From assembly GCA_019056805.1 (NCBI GenBank), contig DXJG01000002.1:7855-39854 (forward strand): DNA of 32,000 nt. The letters run 5' to 3'. How positions within the stretch are numbered: position 1 is the first letter of the stretch; each line of letters begins with the position of its first letter. The translations under genes and the position numbers were made by a program. Shown here piece after piece: positions 2,477 to 30,949 of the stretch. The notes under the pieces were generated by a model that saw nothing but the letters and a program-made list of their open reading frames with translations, was not told the origin of the DNA and did not search any database. This DNA is from Candidatus Baldrarchaeota archaeon. Lineage in GTDB: Archaea > Asgardarchaeota > Baldrarchaeia > Baldrarchaeales > DXJG01.

Positions 2477-2581
2477 TGGAGCCGCCGCCGGGCTTCGAAC
2501 CCGGGACCTCCTCCTTACCAAGGAGGCGCTTTGGTCGGTTCTTGATGTGTTTTTTCTCTGACCAGGCTGAGCTACGGCGGC
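2477..2581 (-). tRNA. tRNA-Thr (anticodon GGU) with a 27-nt non-canonical intron in the 3' half of the D-arm; CCA encoded
   Basis: The minus strand folds as follows. Acceptor stem GCCGCCG/CGGCGGC. D-stem GCTC...GAGC, which forms only after removing about 2529-2555 (AAAAAACACATCAAGAACCGACCAAAG; the junction can slide by 1-2 nt). Anticodon arm CCTCC-TTGGTAA-GGAGG. T-arm CCGGG-TTCGAAG-CCCGG. Discriminator U, then CCA. Mature length is 78 nt. Confidence 0.88.
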
Positions 2582-2796: not shown

Positions 2797-3471
2797 ATGA
2801 TGAGTGTTGTTCTCATCGGGACGGTCATTTTGCAGTTGTTAAATATATTTGATATGGTGTTTTCGTTTTTTGAAGGGATTAAGGATGTTATTTCGGATTT
2901 TCTTGGGATTCCTATTCCTGATGAGGCTTGGATTTCGTTTTGGTTGTTTGTGGCTCTGGTTATTTCGACTTATGTTTTATCGCTAGGAAAGGGACCTGTG
3001 GAGTCGGGTTTTCCTATCGATGAGGTGGGTGCTGAGTCGGCTGCGGTGTTTAAGGCTGAGGAGGTTGCTGCTAGGTCGGCGTTAGAGTTTTTGGATGATG
3101 CTTTTAATAAGGGTGAGGTTTCTGAGCAGTTGTTTAATAGGTTGAAGTCTTTCTATTCTAGTAAGTTGGATAGGATTAGTGAGCAGCTGGCTCGTTTAAG
3201 TAGATTTGAAGAAATTAGAGGTATTGATCTTGAACTTGAGGAGGCTAAGCGAGAATTTTTGGAGAGGCTAAAACCACCGTCTGAAGTTGAGAGACCAGCG
3301 GTTAGGGAGGAACCGGTTGTCGAGGAAGTTGCGGTTCCTAAGGTTGAGGAGGCTAAGGTTGAGCCTACTGTTCCTTCTGCTCCGAAAGGGGAGACGCTTG
3401 TTCAGGTTTTAAGAGATGAGATGTTGAGGGAGCTTCGTAGGTTAAAGGAAATTATAGAGAAGTCCAGTTAA
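2797..3471 (+). CDS. Hypothetical membrane protein: N-terminal hydrophobic helices, coiled-coil middle, Glu/Val/Pro-rich low-complexity tail
   Basis: 224-aa ORF with ATG start and SD GGTGA 5 nt upstream. Two hydrophobic segments (VVLIGTVILQLL, AWISFWLFVALVISTYVL) are followed by heptad-like charged sequence. I recognise no family. Confidence 0.6.
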   Translation: MMSVVLIGTVILQLLNIFDMVFSFFEGIKDVISDFLGIPIPDEAWISFWLFVALVISTYVLSLGKGPVESGFPIDEVGAESAAVFKAEEVAARSALEFLDDAFNKGEVSEQLFNRLKSFYSSKLDRISEQLARLSRFEEIRGIDLELEEAKREFLERLKPPSEVERPAVREEPVVEEVAVPKVEEAKVEPTVPSAPKGETLVQVLRDEMLRELRRLKEIIEKSS

Positions 3472-4190: not shown

Positions 4191-5792
4191 TTAGTCTGCA
4201 TAAATTTTTTTCCCTTGTTTTAATACCTCTTCAAGTATTTTTCCATAGTTGCTATTTTTTCTGATTCTTACTTCTCCTCGTTTTCCGACCTTAACCGCAA
4301 ATAATAAGTCTTGGTCAGCATAAAAATTAACTAATTTTCTTGCTAGTGGTGGTGGAACAAGAAGGATATAGTATTTACGCGTAATGTCTATTTCCACAGG
4401 TAATTTTTCTCTTTTAGTAACTTCTCTTCTAACTTTTCCTTTTTTTACTTCCTTTATGGGGGAAACAACTACTTGTTCTCCGAAGACGTATATTTCGTAT
4501 TCCAGTCCTCCTTTTTCAAAATCTCTGACTTCAATAACTGGTCGGGCTAAATCTCTTTCAGTCATTCCGGATGGAACTTTTACCGTGAGGTTTAGAGAGT
4601 ATACTTTTTCTATTCTTCCGCCTTTAATGAAAATTACGGTGTCTATAACTCTACTGATTAGGCCTAAGTCTACTCTTCCAATGAATCGTTGTATGGCATC
4701 TATTGCTTGTGTTGCATGAACAACACCTATCATTCCTACACCAGCGAATCTTAAGTCTGCGAAGATTTTGAAATCTCTGGTTTTTCGAAGTTCATCAAAA
4801 ATACAGTAGTCGGGTCTTACGAGTAATAGCACATCGGCTGTCTTCTCTAAACTACCTTTTAGAGCGGTATATTGAGTTATATCCGGGCCTACCTGTAAGT
4901 CTCTGGGTTTTTCGATTGTTTTCACAATTTTGTTCATGCTGCTATAAAATTCGGCTAGTGCTGATGCGAAGGTACTTTTACCCGCGCCGGGTGGACCTGC
5001 GATTAATATGCCTTCTGCTCTTTCTTTTAGTCGTTTAAGGAGTCTATCTGATACGTTGTAATCGTTTATTGTCATTTTGACAAGGGGTCTTACGGCTGTT
5101 ATTTCCATTCCATCTGAGAAGGGAGGTCTTGCGATCGCAATTCTGTATTCTCCCATTTGTACAACGGTTGCTCCAGGTTCGTCGATTTCTATAAAAGCGT
5201 CTTTTTCACTTCTTGTTCTTTCTATTATGTCCATAGCGATGCTTTGCAATTCTTCGAGGCTTACGGGGTCTTCTCTGATTTTTACTAACTCCCAGTGACC
5301 AGGGGTGCCTCTTTTTGCAAGGGGAGGAACTCCTTCTTTCAGATGCACTGACATGACATTTTCCGAGAAGAAATCTTCGATTTTAATCCTTTTTCTTTTG
5401 ATTTTTATATATTCTGTTTCTATTCCTTCAATTTTGGCTAGAGAAGCTTGAATATGATCACTAGTAATTAGCTTGGCATTTAGCTCTTTTGCTTGTCTTC
5501 TTATTAGAGCATCTATTTCTCCCTTCGATGCGTATTTTATTTGTCCTGGATCTGGTCTTTCTCCGACAAATTCTAGTTCTATTTTGTTTTCTTCTGCTAG
5601 TTTTCTGAGTTTTTTCAACTCTTCTAGCCCTGCGTATCCAACAGCTTTCCCTATGTTTGCTTGGTATTCTATTTCTGCAATAACAGCGTTGGGTATGGCT
5701 ATTTTTACATTACTTAGTTTATTTTCCCTTATTTTACGGGATAACCATCCTTCTATGATGATTGACGTGTCGGGTACTATGATTTTTGTCAT
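4191..5792 (-). CDS. PIN-domain / P-loop ATPase fusion protein (archaeal PilT-family ATPase, COG1855-like)
   Basis: 533 aa. The N-terminus [12 protein letters not shown] is PIN-like, with a central Walker [10 protein letters not shown] and a Walker B-like CIFDE. Function is uncharacterised. Confidence 0.8.
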
Positions 5793-5897: not shown

Positions 5898-6434
5898 TTA
5901 GAGCTCTAAACGTGAAACTTTATAATACGTTATATCTCCCTGTCTGTCTACAATTGCCAATATTAATTCTTTTCCCATACTTCGTGCTGCTTTAGTTATT
6001 TTATCAAGTTCGGTTAAACTAAATGGTTTTCCTTCTTCTACTATTCCAACTAGATATTTAGCTACATCTTTTCCTACTTTTGCCCCTCTTTCGTACAGGC
6101 GATATTCAGCGACTTCTCCTGGACCCTGCCTAACTATGTAACCTCGGGATCTTAGGTCTCTGTAGACGATATATTTTATCCAAATTTCTTTATCTACTTT
6201 TTCAAGATATTTCATCAAATCGTTGAAACTGTATTCATTTCCGCCGTTGTCAATAACTTTTATCTTGTTTCTCTCTAGAAGTATTAACGCTTCAACAGGG
6301 TTAAGTATCAGCTTTTCATCTGAAACTAATTCTCCATAATATCCTTGATTATAAAGCTTTGCAACATCTTTTCCTTCTATTATCACCGAGGTATCTATGA
6401 GTTTTCCGCAAGCTACGATTTCTTCCTCTTCCAT
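5898..6434 (-). CDS. endA: tRNA-splicing endonuclease family protein (EndA homologue; catalytic His apparently replaced by Val)
   Basis: 178 aa. It is collinear with M. jannaschii EndA as I recall it: KYIVYRDLRSRGYIV, YRLYERGA, KELILAIVDRQGDITYY. Tyr114 and Lys155 are conserved, but the position aligned with catalytic His125 is Val124. Confidence 0.85.
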   Translation of the reverse strand: MEEEEIVACGKLIDTSVIIEGKDVAKLYNQGYYGELVSDEKLILNPVEALILLERNKIKVIDNGGNEYSFNDLMKYLEKVDKEIWIKYIVYRDLRSRGYIVRQGPGEVAEYRLYERGAKVGKDVAKYLVGIVEEGKPFSLTELDKITKAARSMGKELILAIVDRQGDITYYKVSRLEL

Positions 6435-9084: not shown

Positions 9085-9181
9085 GCCCCGGTGGTGTAGC
9101 CCGGCCTAGCATGCGGGTCTGTCACAGGGCTACAACCCGTCAAAACCCGCGACCCGGGTTCAAATCCCGGCCGGGGCGCCA
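9085..9181 (+). tRNA. tRNA-Asp (anticodon GUC) with a 19-nt intron at the canonical 37/38 position; CCA encoded
   Basis: Acceptor stem GCCCCGG/CCGGGGC. D-arm GTGT-AGCCCGGCCTA-GCAT. Anticodon arm CGGGT-CTGTCA[intron 9125-9143]A-ACCCG. T-arm CCGGG-TTCAAAT-CCCGG. Discriminator G, then CCA. TATA-like ATATATAA lies at 9046-9053. Confidence 0.9.
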
Positions 9182-25462: not shown

Positions 25463-25630
25463 ATGAAACTAATTACTGTACACTTGCCTGAAGCTTACCT
25501 TAAGGGATTAGACAAACTAGTTAAACGTAGAATGTACCCAAATCGCAGCGAAGCAATCAGAATAGCCATCAGAGATCTTTTAAAAAGAGAACTTTGGGAA
25601 CAGGTCAAACTATGGGGGGATAGACTTTGA
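25463..25630 (+). CDS. cdrS: Small ribbon-helix-helix (CopG family) DNA-binding protein, CdrS-like; not in the supplied ORF track
   Basis: My own translation gives 55 aa: MKLITVHLPEAYLKGLDKLVKRRMYPNRSEAIRIAIRDLLKRELWEQVKLWGDRL. The pattern is beta-strand ITVHLP, then helix, then SEAIRIAIRDLL, which is the RHH fold. SD GGAGGT lies 5 nt upstream. The stop TGA (25628-25630) overlaps the ftsZ TTG start (25627). Confidence 0.75.
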   Translation: MKLITVHLPEAYLKGLDKLVKRRMYPNRSEAIRIAIRDLLKRELWEQVKLWGDRL

Positions 25631-26829
25631 AAACGTTAATAAAAGATGCCCTAAATCATTCTAAAGTAGAAAAAACCAGAACATATGTAAGAGAGCCTGG
25701 AAGAGCCAGAATAGTCGTCGTAGGAGCTGGTGGTGCAGGAAATAACACAGTAAACAGATTGATGACAATCGGCATACAAGGTGCCGAGTGTATAGCAGTA
25801 AATACCGATAAACAACATTTAGATAGTGTAAAGGCCCACAGAAAAATTTTGATAGGCGAAAACCTCACAAGAGGTCTTGGAGCTGGAGGATTCCCCGAAA
25901 TCGGTGCAGCGGCTGCAGAAGAAAGTCGAGACATGCTTACTGAAGCTTTAAGCGACTCTGATTTGGTCTTTATAACCTACGGGCTCGGAGGCGGAACTGG
26001 AACTGGAAGTGGTCCAATAATAGCTGAAATAGCAAAGGAAATAGGAGCTATAGTTGTAGGAGTCGTCACAATGCCATTTAAGGTTGAACGCGCACGGATA
26101 AAAAGAGCAAAAGAGGGACTAAGAAAATTAATTAGAAAAGCAGATACTGTTGTAGTTATTGATAATAATCGTTTATTAGAAATAGCGCCAGATTTACCTA
26201 TTGATGAAGCGTTTAGTGTTGCCGATGAAATACTGGCAAATATGGTAAAAGGAATCACAGAGACTATTGCCTTGCCTTCTCTAATAAACCTTGATTATGC
26301 TGACGTAAGAACCATTATGAGTAACGGTGAAGTTGCAATGGTAGGCTTAGGTGAAAGTAGTGGTCATGATCGGGCAAAGGAAGCTGTTATTGATGCGTTA
26401 CAAAATCCTCTTTTAGATATAGATATAACTGGCGCCAAAGGAGCACTTATTCATGTAAGTGGCGGGCCTGATATGAGTTTACGAGAAGCTGAGAGATGTG
26501 CTGAGATAGTAGTTGAAAAAATGGATCCAAATGCACAAATCATTTGGGGAGCCAGGGTAGACCCACATCTAGAAGATTTATTACGTGTCATTCTCATAGT
26601 TACAGGTGTTAAAAGCCCTCACTTACTCGGTCCTAATGATGGTGGTAATTTAGAGCTTTTTGAGGAAGAGTTCGGAGGATTAGAAGAGGACTTATACTTT
26701 GGTATGCCTGGAAAAGCTGAAATTAAAAGCTTTAGTGATGTTAGAGCTCTATTAGATGGGAAAAAACCATCGCTTGCATTAAAAGAAGGAAAGCTAGACT
26801 TGAAGAAACTAGTGGACCCTTTGGATTAA
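25627..26829 (+). CDS. ftsZ: Cell division GTPase FtsZ
   Basis: 400 aa with the tubulin signature GLGGGTGTGSGP, plus VVGAGGAGNN and NTDKQHL. TTG start with G-rich SD GGGGGGA 6 nt upstream. Confidence 0.95.
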   Translation: MKTLIKDALNHSKVEKTRTYVREPGRARIVVVGAGGAGNNTVNRLMTIGIQGAECIAVNTDKQHLDSVKAHRKILIGENLTRGLGAGGFPEIGAAAAEESRDMLTEALSDSDLVFITYGLGGGTGTGSGPIIAEIAKEIGAIVVGVVTMPFKVERARIKRAKEGLRKLIRKADTVVVIDNNRLLEIAPDLPIDEAFSVADEILANMVKGITETIALPSLINLDYADVRTIMSNGEVAMVGLGESSGHDRAKEAVIDALQNPLLDIDITGAKGALIHVSGGPDMSLREAERCAEIVVEKMDPNAQIIWGARVDPHLEDLLRVILIVTGVKSPHLLGPNDGGNLELFEEEFGGLEEDLYFGMPGKAEIKSFSDVRALLDGKKPSLALKEGKLDLKKLVDPLD

Positions 26830-27401: not shown

Positions 27402-27946
27402 GTGAAATACCTCCTTTTGTTTTAATTGAGTAATTCAACAGTGTTAATTATTTTTACATTAATAACACTTACTCACTGCAGGGTAAGAAACTGTTAATTA
27501 TGAAGCTTTTTCTTTAAACTAATAAATTTGATTGAAAGATGTCTTTGTGAATATTGATAAAAGTAAGAAAGAAATACTGAAACATATTTTGACACAGTTC
27601 TTTTACATGTATCAAATAACAAAAAGGAAAATGAGTACCCTTTTCATTAGGTTATTCATTAATACAGAAGTTTTGAAAAATTTCTATTAACCTTTCTCTT
27701 TTAATTGTTAGAAAATATTGACGATTATTTCTTTCATAAGTAATGTGAAGTCGTGGAGATTTTCAGTAATTGTTGAAATTTATTCTTATAATTTTCTTTA
27801 CTTTCAAGAAACTCTCTTTCTCCTCTTTCATATGTTTTTCTAATTTATGGCCATGAAGGTTAAACAGAAACTAGTTTCGTTTAATACTTATAGTTGGTAT
27901 CAAAAAGACAGAAAAATCGGTTTTTTAATCTTATTTTGGGCTAAAA

Positions 27947-28987
27947 ATGAAGAAAGATAGAATATCTTGCTTCGAGTGTAAAGGTGAAGTTGTTATTCAC
28001 AATGGTCAGTATGTCTGCTCAAATTGTGGACTAGTTATTGGACCGGAGTACCTTCCCCCTATTGTAGAGTTTAGTTCCACGGAGGATAGTTTAGGTATTT
28101 CTTCTAAACAATATGTATCACTCGGATCCCGAGTTCACATAGTAGATGGATTAGGAAGCTACATAGATTATCATATGACTCCATTTTTTAAAGACAGTCA
28201 TGGCGAGTCTCTTGTTCCATTCAAACAACGTCTATTTAGAAGGCTAAAATATATGTACGACTTAAGAACAAGGATTAGCGGGAATGAAACTAATTACAGA
28301 GCATTAAGGACTTTAAACAGGGCGTGTCGTGTCCTTCAATTGCCAGATTCTGTAAGAGACAGAGCAGCATATTATTATCAAAAAATTTCCAAAAAATATG
28401 ATAAATTAAAAGAAGATTCAACGAATCATATAGTTCTTGCAGCTGCATGTCTTCTTTTTGCTATAAGAGAATATAAGCACATAGCTCCCGTGACAATCCA
28501 AGAGTTAGTTGAAGTTTTTAAAAACATGGGACATCGCGTAAGCGTACGTCGTGTAGTCAGAGAAATCACCGTTGTGAAAAAGATAGTAAACGCAAAGAAT
28601 TACGTAAGAAAAAGCGAAGATTATATTTACAGAATTATCTCAGCGATTATAAATTCGAAAGATGTGATCATGCAACTACAATCCCTAAACATTCCTTATG
28701 ACCATTTTAAACGATTACTATTAAAAGAAACACTAAAACTGCTTCGAAGTCTAAATTTCTCTATCCGAAAAGGACGGAATCCTTACATACTAGCCGTTGC
28801 TTCAGTCTATGCAGCATCTAAGAAAATATCATCCCAATTAGGCACTAAACGGATTCTAACTCAAAAACTTGTAGCAAAACTCTCCGGAGTTGCTGAATAT
28901 AGTGTCAGAGATCATTATTGCTCTCTTTTAAAGAAAATTATAGAAAAGCAAGGAGACAATAAACTTGAAGCCAGACCAATTCAATAA
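27947..28987 (+). CDS. Divergent transcription factor B (TFB/TFIIB) paralog
   Basis: 346 aa. The N-terminal Zn ribbon is CFEC-x12-CSNC. Two cyclin-like repeats follow: ALRTLNRACRVLQLPDSVRDRAAYYYQKI...LAAACLLFAIRE, and RNPYILAVASVYAASK...TQKLVAKLSGVAEYSVRDHY. The canonical GPEWRAF-type B-reader/linker sequence is absent. Confidence 0.8.
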   Translation: MKKDRISCFECKGEVVIHNGQYVCSNCGLVIGPEYLPPIVEFSSTEDSLGISSKQYVSLGSRVHIVDGLGSYIDYHMTPFFKDSHGESLVPFKQRLFRRLKYMYDLRTRISGNETNYRALRTLNRACRVLQLPDSVRDRAAYYYQKISKKYDKLKEDSTNHIVLAAACLLFAIREYKHIAPVTIQELVEVFKNMGHRVSVRRVVREITVVKKIVNAKNYVRKSEDYIYRIISAIINSKDVIMQLQSLNIPYDHFKRLLLKETLKLLRSLNFSIRKGRNPYILAVASVYAASKKISSQLGTKRILTQKLVAKLSGVAEYSVRDHYCSLLKKIIEKQGDNKLEARPIQ

Positions 28988-30533
28988 TTTATCCAAAGAT
29001 CAGATTTTAGATCAATATACGGTGGGACCCTACATTGTAACCATACTATCAACTAGCGATCGGAGTTTCCACAATATGTATACTTATTCTTCAATTCTTG
29101 AATTATCTCCCTCCCTAAAAGGTATATTTTACCTAACAGTCCAACACCTTGTGTCTAGTGGAGAGTCAATATCTTCCTTGCTATTTGACCAAATTTTAGC
29201 TGACAAGATAGAAACAGCAAAACTTTTTATAAAAAACACCAAAATTCAACTCTCAAATGACATTATTCAGAAATTAGCCGAACTTTCAACATTTAAATCT
29301 ATGAATTTAGAGAAATTATTTCCTTTTTTACTTGACGAAAATATAGAAGAAATTTTTCTTGATTCCCTTAGTTCCCCAATTTATTTAGATCACAGAAAAT
29401 GGGGAAGGTGTCTAACAGATACCTACCTTTCCGAACGAGAGCTTGAAAGTTTTATTACTCTAATAAGAGCTAACAGTGGGTACAGACTTGATACAACAAA
29501 CCCTTCATTAAAAACAGAATTAATTACAAAACGCTTTCATGTTAGAGTATCACTTGATATACATCCATTAGTTGTTGACAAAGTTCATTTAGATATTAGA
29601 AAAGTTAGAAGAAAAGTCTTTACCCTACCAGAATTGATTGCCAATGGAACAATTTCTCCTGACATCTGTGCGTACGTTTATTTTTGTTTGCTACGTAGAA
29701 GAAATATCACTGTAACAGGAGAACCAGGAGCTGGGAAGACTACTCTAATAAATGCTTTTGACATTCTGACTCCACCTGATTGGAGAAAAATAACAATAGA
29801 AGATGTTATCGAAAGTATTCCACAACTTAAATACGGGAAACACCAAGTAAGATTTAAGGTGGAACCATACGAAGAAGGCGAGAAAAAATATAGCAAATCA
29901 AGTGAAATAATTAAATTGTTACACAGATCTCCAGACTACATCTACTTGGGAGAAATCCAAACAAAAGAACATAGTAAAGCTATGTTTCACGCTTTAAGTG
30001 CAGGTTTAACAGGTCTGCAAACCTGTCATTCAGCAGGTCCTGAGGACCTGCTATTACGTTGGCTTTTTCATCATAAAATTCCGATAATAGCGTTTCAATC
30101 ACTTGATATAATTATTCATACCAAAAGGATTAAAATCAACGGAAAATATGTTAGGCGAATTATCCGAGTTTGCGAGTTGGATATGCCTAAAAAGGTAAAA
30201 TTCAACCTCAATCTTCACGAAATACGTATAATTGATATATTTAAGTGGAATCCTGCCACGGATATCCATGAACAATACTTCGATGATCTATATAACACAC
30301 CAACGATTCAAAAAATTAGGAAATACGAAAAATTGGATAAAAAGCAATTTTACAACGAAATAGAAATGCTTTACAACATTTTTAAGATATTAGCTGAAAG
30401 AAAAATCTTTGATGTAACAAAAATAGTTAAGTTTTTTGATTATATTAATAGAGTACATGCAAAATGGAGAAGAAGAGAAGCAGACTTAGAACAAATATTA
30501 TCCAAGTTTTTCAAAGCGAATATTGTGGTTTAA
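28965..30533 (+). CDS. Type IV filament / secretion ATPase (ArlI/FlaI/PilB/TadA superfamily)
   Basis: 522 aa. TTG start 8 nt after SD AAGGAGA, overlapping the TFB-like gene by 23 nt. Motifs are Walker A GEPGAGKTT, Asp box ITIEDVIES, Walker B SPDYIYLGEIQ and His box LQTCHS. The C-terminal IFKWNPATD...region resembles archaeal FlaI/PilB-type ATPases. Confidence 0.85.
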   Translation: MKPDQFNNLSKDQILDQYTVGPYIVTILSTSDRSFHNMYTYSSILELSPSLKGIFYLTVQHLVSSGESISSLLFDQILADKIETAKLFIKNTKIQLSNDIIQKLAELSTFKSMNLEKLFPFLLDENIEEIFLDSLSSPIYLDHRKWGRCLTDTYLSERELESFITLIRANSGYRLDTTNPSLKTELITKRFHVRVSLDIHPLVVDKVHLDIRKVRRKVFTLPELIANGTISPDICAYVYFCLLRRRNITVTGEPGAGKTTLINAFDILTPPDWRKITIEDVIESIPQLKYGKHQVRFKVEPYEEGEKKYSKSSEIIKLLHRSPDYIYLGEIQTKEHSKAMFHALSAGLTGLQTCHSAGPEDLLLRWLFHHKIPIIAFQSLDIIIHTKRIKINGKYVRRIIRVCELDMPKKVKFNLNLHEIRIIDIFKWNPATDIHEQYFDDLYNTPTIQKIRKYEKLDKKQFYNEIEMLYNIFKILAERKIFDVTKIVKFFDYINRVHAKWRRREADLEQILSKFFKANIVV

Positions 30534-30567
30534 ATATTGAAATAATCACTAATTAAGGGATATTGAA

Positions 30568-30783
30568 ATGAAAAAAGAACTATTGAACATAACTCGATTG
30601 CTAAAGGATGAAAAAGCTTCACCTTTAATCGAAGAAGGATTACTTATAGGTTTATCCCTAATAATAATAGCTATAATTGTAGGAATCGTACTACGTACTA
30701 TGGGGTGGACCCAAGATATTTTTAACTCTATTTTAGAACAACTTGAAGAAATCAAAAAATCTATATCCCAAATGTTCAGTTAA
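30568..30783 (+). CDS. Flp-like type IV prepilin (small, class III signal peptide)
   Basis: 71 aa: MKKELLNITRLLKDEKA|SPLIEEGLLIGLSLIIIAIIVGIV.... This resembles the bacterial Flp motif (e.g. Caulobacter PilA, as I recall it: RFLKDESGATAIEYGLIVALIAV). It has K-A at -2/-1, Glu at +5, and then a hydrophobic helix. SD AAGGGA upstream. Confidence 0.65.
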   Translation: MKKELLNITRLLKDEKASPLIEEGLLIGLSLIIIAIIVGIVLRTMGWTQDIFNSILEQLEEIKKSISQMFS

Positions 30784-30810: not shown

Positions 30811-30949
30811 TGGTGCCGCGGCCGGGATTTATCCACACTCGAGGTAAGCTCGAGTGTTTTGAACCCGGGTCCAGGGCTCGAATGACCTGAGGGTTGCTAT
30901 TCAACTCCTCATGAGGCCCCGATGCTTGGCCGGGCTACACCACCGCGGC
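30811..30949 (-). tRNA. tRNA with CAU anticodon (elongator Met or Ile2) carrying two introns (31 nt at 37/38, 30 nt in the T-loop); CCA encoded
   Basis: The minus strand folds as follows. Acceptor stem GCCGCGG/CCGCGGC. D-arm GTGT-AGCCCGGCCAA-GCAT. Anticodon arm GGGGC-CTCATG[30879-30909]A-GCCCT. T-arm CCGGG-TTCAAA[about 30828-30857]T-CCCGG. Discriminator A, then CCA. Mature length is 78 nt. G1:C72 argues against an initiator. Confidence 0.85.

Follow-up and report, generated by a model that had tools for sequence, protein, structure and literature searches.

A conserved Asgard gene module linking a TFIIB-family factor to a type IV filament ATPase and a small pilin-like protein

A 32,000-nucleotide stretch of a Candidatus Baldrarchaeota genome (assembly GCA_019056805.1, contig DXJG01000002.1, positions 7,855 to 39,854 of the forward strand; hereafter the window) carries three consecutive plus-strand genes, which encode a divergent paralog of the transcription factor TFIIB/TFB, an ATPase of the type IV filament family and a small pilin-like protein. 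We examined the identity of the three proteins, the recurrence of their genes in related archaea and the sequences upstream of them. A first-pass annotation, made by a model from the letters alone, had described the genes as an operon. The open reading frames (ORFs), overlap, Shine-Dalgarno-like sites and ATPase motifs that it listed were all found as described when the sequence was read again. The elements of the module are as follows.

27947..28987, plus strand: TFB-like gene, encoding a divergent TFIIB/TFB paralog of 346 aa; stop codon TAA at 28985-28987; assigned by hidden Markov model (HMM), profile and AlphaFold2 (AF2) fold
28950..28956, plus strand: Shine-Dalgarno-like AAGGAGA inside the TFB-like gene, 8 nt 5' of the TTG of the ATPase gene; read from the sequence
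28965..30533, plus strand: ATPase gene, encoding a FlaI/GspE2-type type IV filament ATPase of the short form, 522 aa, TTG start; assigned by HMM, profile and motifs
30568..30783, plus strand: small gene, encoding a pilin-like protein of 71 aa with a processing-like motif and one transmembrane helix; without Flp-family HMM support

The TFB-like and ATPase ORFs share 23 nt, from the TTG at 28965 to the end of the TAA, and the small gene is preceded by AAGGGA. No start further upstream is possible for the ATPase ORF, whose N-terminus matches the ATG-initiated homologue of the related locus L002 residue by residue.

The first protein matched the Pfam TFIIB model in two stretches (1.1e-7, 32.3 bits against a cut-off of 23.6) and carries a zinc ribbon, C8xxC11...C24xxC27, whose match to Zn_Ribbon_TF (7.6e-5, 22.6 bits) fell below the cut-off of 29. 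A profile of its family retrieved TFIIB structures from the PDB (5.7e-14 for the human protein, over both repeats; 2e-10 for Pyrococcus TFB) together with the TFIIB ribbon 1PFT (3.9e-4); the first ribbon cysteine is not invariant across the family. The AF2 model (predicted local distance difference test score, pLDDT, 79.7) has TFIIB, TFB and Brf2 as its best folds, with a Foldseek value of 3e-9 for TFIIB and a TM-score of 0.77 for P. woesei TFB, and places three strands at residues 14-33, the ribbon. The HMM match with its two repeats, the four-cysteine ribbon, the profile and the predicted fold thus agree on the TFIIB assignment made at first pass. A GGRNP motif and an AEYS[VI]RDH helix are nearly invariant in the family and align to GRSP and VADVTIRQSY of TFIIB, and the paralog is predicted to keep the TBP- and DNA-binding cyclin core and the helix-turn-helix (HTH) recognition helix for the B recognition element (BRE), which reads AEYSVRDH in the window.

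The paralog is not the housekeeping TFB, since it scored 76.6 bits against NCBIfam NF001658, for which the cut-off is 384. Its 120 best homologues all belong to the same divergent family, which is tight (40-50% identity across phyla); it is a distinct divergent family dedicated to the ATPase family described below. The most conserved stretch of the protein is a family-specific linker that joins the ribbon to the first cyclin repeat, HIVDGLGSYIDY...F.D..G..L...Q.LFRRLKY. Residues of approximately 38-105 gave no alignment to TFIIB and hold no recognizable B-reader or B-linker; in the AF2 model residues 38-74 have a pLDDT below 50 and are predicted to be disordered, and a helix follows at 91-112.

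The second protein matched Pfam T2SSE (2e-15, 56.8 bits against a cut-off of 24.9). Its best solved relatives were A. fulgidus GspE2 (2OAP, 4e-27), FlaI (1e-22) and CpaF (1e-13), with alignments that extend to residues 491-497 and cover the archaeal C-terminal region, so both the family assignment and the C-terminal region proposed at first pass were upheld. The motifs are a Walker A of GEPGAGKTT, an Asp box of ITIEDVIES, a Walker B of HRSPDYIYLGEIQT and a His box of QTCH. The key residues of all four are invariant in 79 homologues, and the family reads GEIQT at Walker B in place of GE[IV]R. The protein is predicted to be a catalytically intact enzyme of the FlaI/GspE2 type. The closest named NCBIfam model was ArlI/FlaI (6.9e-36), and the ATPase is not an equivalog of ArlI, BasE or TadA (FlaI 124 bits against a cut-off of 550, BasE 72 against 1000, TadA 75 against 373). 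Many homologues (P0001, P0002 and others) also carry a precomputed match to PF27713 (UCP018868).

Members of the ATPase family differ at the N-terminus. Long forms of 685-808 aa have an extension of 180-245 aa with 6-12 cysteines, which has no Pfam match; Thor forms retain approximately 90-100 aa of it, with five cysteines; and it is absent from the window and its Baldr-like relatives.

The third protein consists of a basic leader, one transmembrane helix and a C-terminal amphipathic helix. In every lineage it carries the motif [GA]|[SG]PL[VI]EE[GS]LL[LI]GL, with Glu at +5 and a Glu in place of Tyr at +6. In the window the putative cleavage site is KA|SPLIEEGLL, after Ala17, and the predicted mature form has approximately 54 aa.

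Recurrence of the three genes was assessed by scanning one genome per species with the TFB-paralog alignment, which gave 80 loci from Thor, Hermod, Hod, Odin, Jord, Frey, Atabey, Hel and Baldr-like Asgard archaea. Bathyarchaeia loci were obtained separately, via ATPase neighborhoods, and all ORFs of the fetched loci were searched with HMMs and clustered. An ATPase gene was present in 72 of the 80 loci; seven of the eight others are cut by a contig end near the gene, leaving L052 as the single real exception. The ATPase gene lies directly downstream of the paralog on the same strand in 66 loci (median gap 63 nt) and upstream in divergent orientation in five. A small protein of approximately 70 aa is encoded in 68 of the 72 ATPase-bearing loci. 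Recurrence of the triad, named in the first-pass annotation as a point to check, was therefore found. In addition, many of the paralog and ATPase matches in the protein database share contigs of 5-7 kb. Conservation of the triad is similar to that of POR-gamma between close relatives and to that of L3/L4 at the phylum-level divergence of Atabey, and from these comparisons the triad is under purifying selection, in housekeeping synteny. The module is widespread in Asgard archaea and also occurs in some Thermoproteota (Bathyarchaeia); it is probably present in Methanomethylicia and Culexarchaeia as well. Among the Asgard archaea, Lokiarchaeia also have homologues (P0051, P0215, P0266).

A subset of the loci is more complete. 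T2SSF platform genes lie immediately after a long ATPase gene in 17 of the 72 loci. In such fuller loci (Hermod/Hod-type, Jord/Frey, Hel and Bathyarchaeia) the long ATPase is followed by two polytopic TadB/C-like proteins, fused in Hel, which gave weak but specific T2SSF and ArlJ matches (Pfam T2SSF 9.7e-6, above cut-off). In Hermod-type loci there is also a family of class III-like pilins (fam74) whose sequence starts MNQSLEKIVIIGL, and the Bathyarchaeia locus L005 holds five pilin-like genes, an A24 peptidase (3.1e-5) and a CbiA/TadZ-like ATPase. Since platform genes occur in the fuller loci, with a peptidase and minor pilins in L005, the triad appears to be the core that was kept from a more complete, Tad/Epd-like system for a type IV filament.

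No platform gene lies within 10 kb in the other 55 loci, to which the closest relatives of the window belong; in 53 of these loci the ATPase is short (462-593 aa). By pairwise identities and a neighbor-joining tree, the Baldr-like short ATPases group with long forms from Bathyarchaeia, Atabey and Jord (43-47% identity), and the Thor short ATPases, 31-34% identical to that of the window, are placed near Hermod forms. Because the two sets of short forms group apart, joint reduction of platform and N-terminal domain must have occurred at least twice. The lineage of the window has the most reduced version of the module, with neither a platform gene nor the N-terminal extension of the ATPase. The absence of platform and peptidase genes that had been reported for this locus thus holds, for the window and approximately 10 kb beyond it, but does not extend to the 17 related loci with platform genes. 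The description of the genes as a self-contained minimal pair is doubtful for the same reason, given also the peptidase, minor pilins and TadZ-like ATPase of L005; what stands of it is that the three genes recur as a strongly conserved module.

The fuller versions resemble the Tad/Flp (type IVc) and archaeal Epd-type pili in their CpaF/FlaI-like ATPase, two TadB/C-like T2SSF proteins, mature pilin of approximately 54 aa, TadZ-like CbiA ATPase and A24 peptidase, and the small protein shares with Tad/Flp pilins the motif [GA]|xxx[VI]E[EY]GL[LI]. Unlike Tad/Flp systems, however, the family has GEIQT rather than GE[IV]R at Walker B, the window has no platform, peptidase or TadZ gene, the small protein has neither a Flp_Fap HMM match nor significant similarity to the solved Caulobacter PilA, and a TFIIB-type factor is encoded, which Tad loci do not have. 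The likeness to the archaellum ArlI/ArlJ pair is confined to the ATPase, for which ArlI/FlaI is the closest named model and FlaI the second-best solved relative; its 124 bits are far below the 550-bit equivalog cut-off, and there are no ArlJ, ArlH, ArlF/G or archaellin genes.

Three sequence elements upstream of the genes bear on their expression.

27800..27823, plus strand: pyrimidine-rich block ACTTTCA.GAAACTCTCTTTCTCC (also given as AAACTCTCTTTCTCC), nearly invariant in comparison with three relatives while its flanks diverge
27880..27887, plus strand: candidate TATA box TTTAATAC for a TFB-like/ATPase transcript, approximately 60 nt 5' of the ATG; four relatives have CTTTAA[TC]A here
30523..30536, plus strand: putative small-gene promoter, BRE-like TTGTGG followed by the TATA box TTTAAATA; listed as starting 39 nt before the ATG

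The first two lie in a 545-nt AT-rich intergenic region (27402-27946) before the TFB-like gene, which has approximately 130 nt extra in comparison with relatives. The pyrimidine-rich block may have a regulatory role. For the TFB-like gene the candidate promoter is of an ordinary kind, with no G-rich upstream element. Given the overlap of the TFB-like and ATPase genes, the two are likely to be co-transcribed in the window, putatively from this promoter.

The small gene differs in this respect. Its TATA box (30529-30536) contains the stop codon of the ATPase gene (TAA, 30531-30533). When the upstream sequences of the small gene were aligned on the conserved coding motif, the consensus [T]TG[TG]GG[GA][GC][CT]TTAAA[TA]A emerged approximately 39 nt before the start, at a near-fixed distance from Bathyarchaeia to the sampled Asgard lineages. 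A position weight matrix (PWM) of the element, run over both strands of 1.43 Mb, gave 37 matches that reached 18 bits, of which 31 lie upstream of the small gene and four more precede copies of it that had been omitted from the gene list or clustered apart (the Bathyarchaeia copy). In the same loci, the 6 nt before the TATA box hold on average 3.64 G at the small gene (n = 42), in comparison with 0.85 at other genes (n = 75). By these measures the G-rich element appears essentially specific to the small gene across lineages. With a consensus TATA box of its own that is kept in nearly all lineages, the small gene is not simply the third cistron of one operon; it is probably transcribed on its own, possibly with read-through in addition. 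Of the three-gene operon, the coupling of the first two genes is therefore the part that remains, and even their overlap is found in only 6 of the 66 adjacent pairs. A scan for sigma-70 promoters and terminators gave counts equal to shuffled expectation and is uninformative for an archaeon.

We favor, at a probability of about one in two, the explanation that the three genes are what is conserved at the center of a Tad/Epd-like type IV filament module, one equipped with an initiation factor of the TFIIB family. From the ordinary promoter, the TFB-like and ATPase genes would be co-transcribed, with coupled translation. The paralog, with TBP, would recognize the unusual BRE-TATA combination of the small gene and recruit RNA polymerase, acting as a dedicated initiation factor that would give high, dedicated expression of the filament subunit, as sigma-28 does with flagellin. 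The prepilin-like protein would enter the membrane, be cleaved after the conserved Gly or Ala and be handled by the ATPase. In the lineage of the window the ATPase may use a platform and peptidase encoded elsewhere, or act without a TadB/C-type platform.

Several observations weigh against this explanation, the missing platform foremost. HMMs for platform proteins were silent even at E<=10 in the window and its extension of approximately 10 kb (L001), and HMMs together with Pfam searches of the remaining window proteins found neither a platform nor an A24 peptidase gene in the approximately 50 kb recovered of this genome. No type IV filament is known to work without a platform. Moreover, all 53 short forms combine loss of the adjacent platform genes with a truncated ATPase N-terminus, in two separate clades, a pattern that suggests real functional change rather than relocation of the genes. 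A word-indexed search for unlinked Thor or Baldr platform genes returned 58 close homologues, all from complete-type loci, and two platform matches labelled 'Thorarchaeota' proved to lie within Hermod-type complete loci. A full HMMER search gave 379 relatives, and none of the 20 clusters looked up was named Thor or Baldr; as these matches carry no genome context, they say little for or against unlinked platform genes. As for the peptidase, no A24 enzyme was found in the window or any extension, and L005 is the only locus with one; prepilin peptidase genes are often unlinked in archaea, so their absence from a locus says little. A 224-aa membrane protein (2797-3471) considered as a candidate peptidase was rejected as a coiled-coil membrane protein.

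Other points against it concern the transcription factor and its proposed target. In the paralog the B-reader/B-linker region is replaced by the disordered family-specific motif, so that recruitment of RNA polymerase is only a prediction, as is action of the paralog on the small-gene promoter. The matrix behind the 37 matches was trained on the same sites that it recovers, and the comparison set for the G content is small. In the window itself the BRE-like element, TTGTGG, is weak: at 10.3 bits it is the third-best match in the window, with a G-run two bases shorter.

The assignment of the small protein is similarly limited. Flp_Fap and class III signal peptide HMMs matched none of 18 family members at E<=10, the family profile had no match to solved Flp pilins in the PDB, and hhalign gave a probability of 2% against the solved Caulobacter pilin. 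BLASTP against the PDB-verified mature Caulobacter PilA gave E=0.009; against the full-length protein it gave E=4e-8, a value that hinges on the leader sequence used. Profile identities from Pfam and the PDB were discarded as coiled-coil or transmembrane noise. The protein is also far better conserved than is usual for pilins. The label 'Flp-like' given at first pass is therefore a motif-level resemblance without demonstrated family membership: the short length, the processing-like motif with Glu at +5 and the single transmembrane helix are observed, and HMM support for a Flp or class III prepilin does not exist.

The first alternative, possible although unlikely, is a repurposed, transcription-related machine that makes no filament, in which the ATPase and the paralog would act together (the ATPase might, for instance, remodel or sequester the paralog), the small transmembrane protein would only tether or sense at the membrane, and pilus assembly would have been lost in the short-ATPase lineages. 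Baldr-like and Thor clades independently lack platform genes and have N-terminally truncated ATPases, which fits this explanation, as do conservation and genomic context at housekeeping level. The overlap of the TFB-like and ATPase genes in the window counts in the same direction, but its rarity among the 66 pairs counts against. The most conserved stretch of the paralog, its disordered linker, could be a partner-binding site, yet there is no ATPase-TFB fusion and no direct evidence of interaction. In 53 Thor loci the paralog is preceded, at a distance of approximately 150 nt, by a probable gene for the RNA polymerase subunit Rpo8. This Rpo8/RpoG candidate (e.g. L023:9411-9788 and L053:8366-8749) is on the same strand as the paralog and matched Pfam RpbG at 5e-5, and its top PDB matches were Rpb8/Rpo8 (0.007-0.014). 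Against repurposing, the closest relatives of the ATPase, at 43-47% identity, are found in complete Tad-like clusters with platform and pilin genes, and the small protein of every lineage has kept a prepilin-like cleavage motif.

The Rpo8 candidate parallels a published system. Makarova, Koonin & Albers (2016, PMC4858521) reported TFIIB homologues in many archaeal type IV pilus loci and described, in the Thermoproteales, a subclade 4D operon in which an ATPase gene is joined by genes for a membrane protein, a TFIIB homologue and RPB8, and for which they proposed transcription-related re-use. The general association of TFIIB homologues with archaeal type IV pilus loci is thus already published, and the first-pass statement that general transcription factor genes are not normally operonic with secretion ATPases overlooked it. 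We compared 4D (arCOG05558 ATPase, arCOG05559 TFIIB) by description and protein lengths. Both systems pair the gene for a VirB11/FlaI-family ATPase with one for a dedicated TFIIB homologue (in Pyrobaculum and Thermoproteus for 4D). In both, RPB8/Rpo8 is in or beside the operon (on our side in the Thor relatives only) and the ATPase has a Cys-rich N-terminal domain (on our side in the long and Thor forms), a further parallel; a transcription-related role has been proposed. The differences are nevertheless substantial. The 4D ATPases have 335-343 aa in comparison with 522-808 aa here, the 4D TFIIB has one cyclin domain and the present paralog two, and 4D has a membrane protein with 4-5 transmembrane segments and never a pilin, whereas the window has a pilin-like gene and no membrane partner of that kind. 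In addition, 4D is confined to the Thermoproteales. A narrower version of repurposing starts from a full-length paralog with a cognate G-rich BRE of its own, hard-wired to the membrane ATPase and its substrate of approximately 54 aa. That the platform-less Thor and Baldr-like trio would then be a platform-independent, signal-coupled transcription switch, with availability of the paralog set through its disordered linker by the ATPase and membrane protein in the manner of sigma-28 and FlgM, seems to us decidedly doubtful.

A second alternative, also unlikely as the primary explanation and itself compatible with the filament module that we favor, is an apparatus for DNA uptake or exchange like the Ups and Ced systems under TFB3 of the Sulfolobales. 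Here the pilus would serve in contact or uptake, a CedD-like HerA/VirB4-type ATPase would move DNA and the paralog would be the switch. A HerA-family membrane ATPase adjoins the module in 43 Thor loci, one Hel locus and Bathyarchaeia loci, in differing arrangements. Its best NCBIfam match is CedD (1.1e-52 in Bathyarchaeia, 8.6e-11 in Thor, both below the equivalog cut-off), and the protein is membrane-anchored (e.g. L023:15501-19205 in Thor, L069:8633-13384 in Hel and L005:10951-12450 in Bathyarchaeia). CedD is essential for DNA import in Saccharolobus (PMC11868833), and ups and ced are both under TFB3 control (PMC6101594). The adjacency of CedD-like genes in three groups makes DNA uptake or exchange a plausible output of the module. 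However, the Thor linkage could be plain lineage synteny, and no CedD-like gene is present in the window and its extensions of approximately 10 kb (approximately 50 kb of this genome) or in the Hermod, Jord, Frey and Atabey loci. No genes like CedA/VirB6 or CedA1/VirB2 were identified.

The comparison with TFB3 itself also cuts both ways. Both cases associate a TFB paralog with a type IV pilus and, in some relatives here, with a CedD-like HerA-family DNA translocase. TFB3, however, is a truncated co-activator encoded at a separate locus, while the present paralog is full length and physically linked to its partners; the window has no Ced components, and by best matches the ATPase falls outside the UpsE clade. 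In the Thor loci, the CedD-like gene is accompanied by genes for two large secreted proteins with Ig-like repeats (fam7), which flank the module.

The last alternative takes the triad for what is left of a decaying pilus locus, or for cargo that a mobile element brought in when it integrated at the neighboring tRNA gene. It draws on the missing platform and peptidase genes, the AT-rich region and a mobile-element-like block inserted in L004 exactly at the tRNA-Met 3' end beside the small gene, but it is highly improbable and already largely refuted. All catalytic motifs are intact, there are no frameshifts, and at deep divergence the triad is conserved to a degree comparable with ribosomal proteins. 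It is flanked by neither an integrase nor repeats, and it lies on the conserved side of the L004 insertion with housekeeping synteny kept in several genomes.

The genes around the module are mostly housekeeping genes. The order in the window is L3-L4-L23-L2, a ribbon-helix-helix (RHH) protein, FtsZ and Lsm_C (minus strand), followed by the three-gene module and then the minus-strand tRNA, POR genes and EF-2. The closest genomes are labelled Candidatus Baldrarchaeota Yap30.bin4.67, whose ribosomal proteins are 88-93% identical to those of the window, and Odinarchaeota AUK032, and the synteny around the triad (Lsm_C, FtsZ, ribosomal proteins, POR) is kept across several genomes. The RHH-FtsZ pair (window 25463-26829; L019:7958-9477; L087:9628-11127) adjoins the module in several Asgard lineages, with varying side and orientation, and in Hermod-type loci genes for Roadblock/LC7 and an Arf-like GTPase follow. 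A second T2SSE-related ATPase is encoded in the window at 4191-5792 (minus strand); it has an N-terminal PIN fusion (PIN 7e-11, T2SSE 2e-7) and belongs to a PIN/PilT-like family without pilus context. The right-hand boundary of the module is set by a tRNA gene that is not a member of it:

30811..30949, minus strand: tRNA-Met(CAT) gene with two introns

The gene was missed in the unmodified sequence by ARAGORN and by Rfam in gathering and E-value modes, and became a complete tRNA-Met(CAT) with CCA by ARAGORN once two inserts had been taken out by brute-force removal. The switch of strand to a tRNA and oxidoreductase genes seen at first pass is thus confirmed, with POR genes beyond. Elsewhere in the window Rfam found a 102-nt tRNA at 2480-2581 (minus strand), presumably with an intron, that ARAGORN misses; ARAGORN reported a 97-nt 'tRNA-SeC' at 9085-9181 (plus strand) without Rfam support; and a tRNA-splicing endonuclease gene lies at 5898-6434 (minus strand). 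Intron-rich tRNAs seem to be common in this genome, with the consequence that standard tRNA finders under-call.

The same tRNA marks a breakpoint between relatives. L004 diverges from the syntenic L002 inside the 3' acceptor stem of tRNA-Met, after TGGTGCCG (L004:7855 onward; approximately window 30818), and carries there an insert of approximately 5.5 kb of plus-strand genes for an HTH protein, a DPPY methyltransferase, an RHH protein, a CxxCxxCC protein and a radical-SAM-like protein. The block looks like an integrated element with tRNA-Met as its attachment site, the tRNA being an integration hot spot there. Nine extra genes after the small gene in L004, considered as platform genes, were rejected in view of this mobile-element-like content and the divergence from L002 inside the acceptor stem.

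In the literature we found no description of this Asgard/Bathyarchaeia family, of the conserved mini-pilin and the promoter of its gene, or of the repeated joint loss of platform genes and ATPase N-terminal domain. According to a 2026 survey preprint, type IV filament systems are rare among Asgard archaea. The presence of the module in most of the Asgard lineages sampled here, with conservation close to that of ribosomal proteins, points to a gap in current surveys. A dedicated TFIIB-family factor, together with one gene that has an unusual conserved BRE-TATA element, offers a testable case of promoter-specific initiation. Finally, the double joint loss of platform and ATPase N-terminal domain provides a natural experiment on whether an ATPase and a pilin can work, or be re-used, without a platform.

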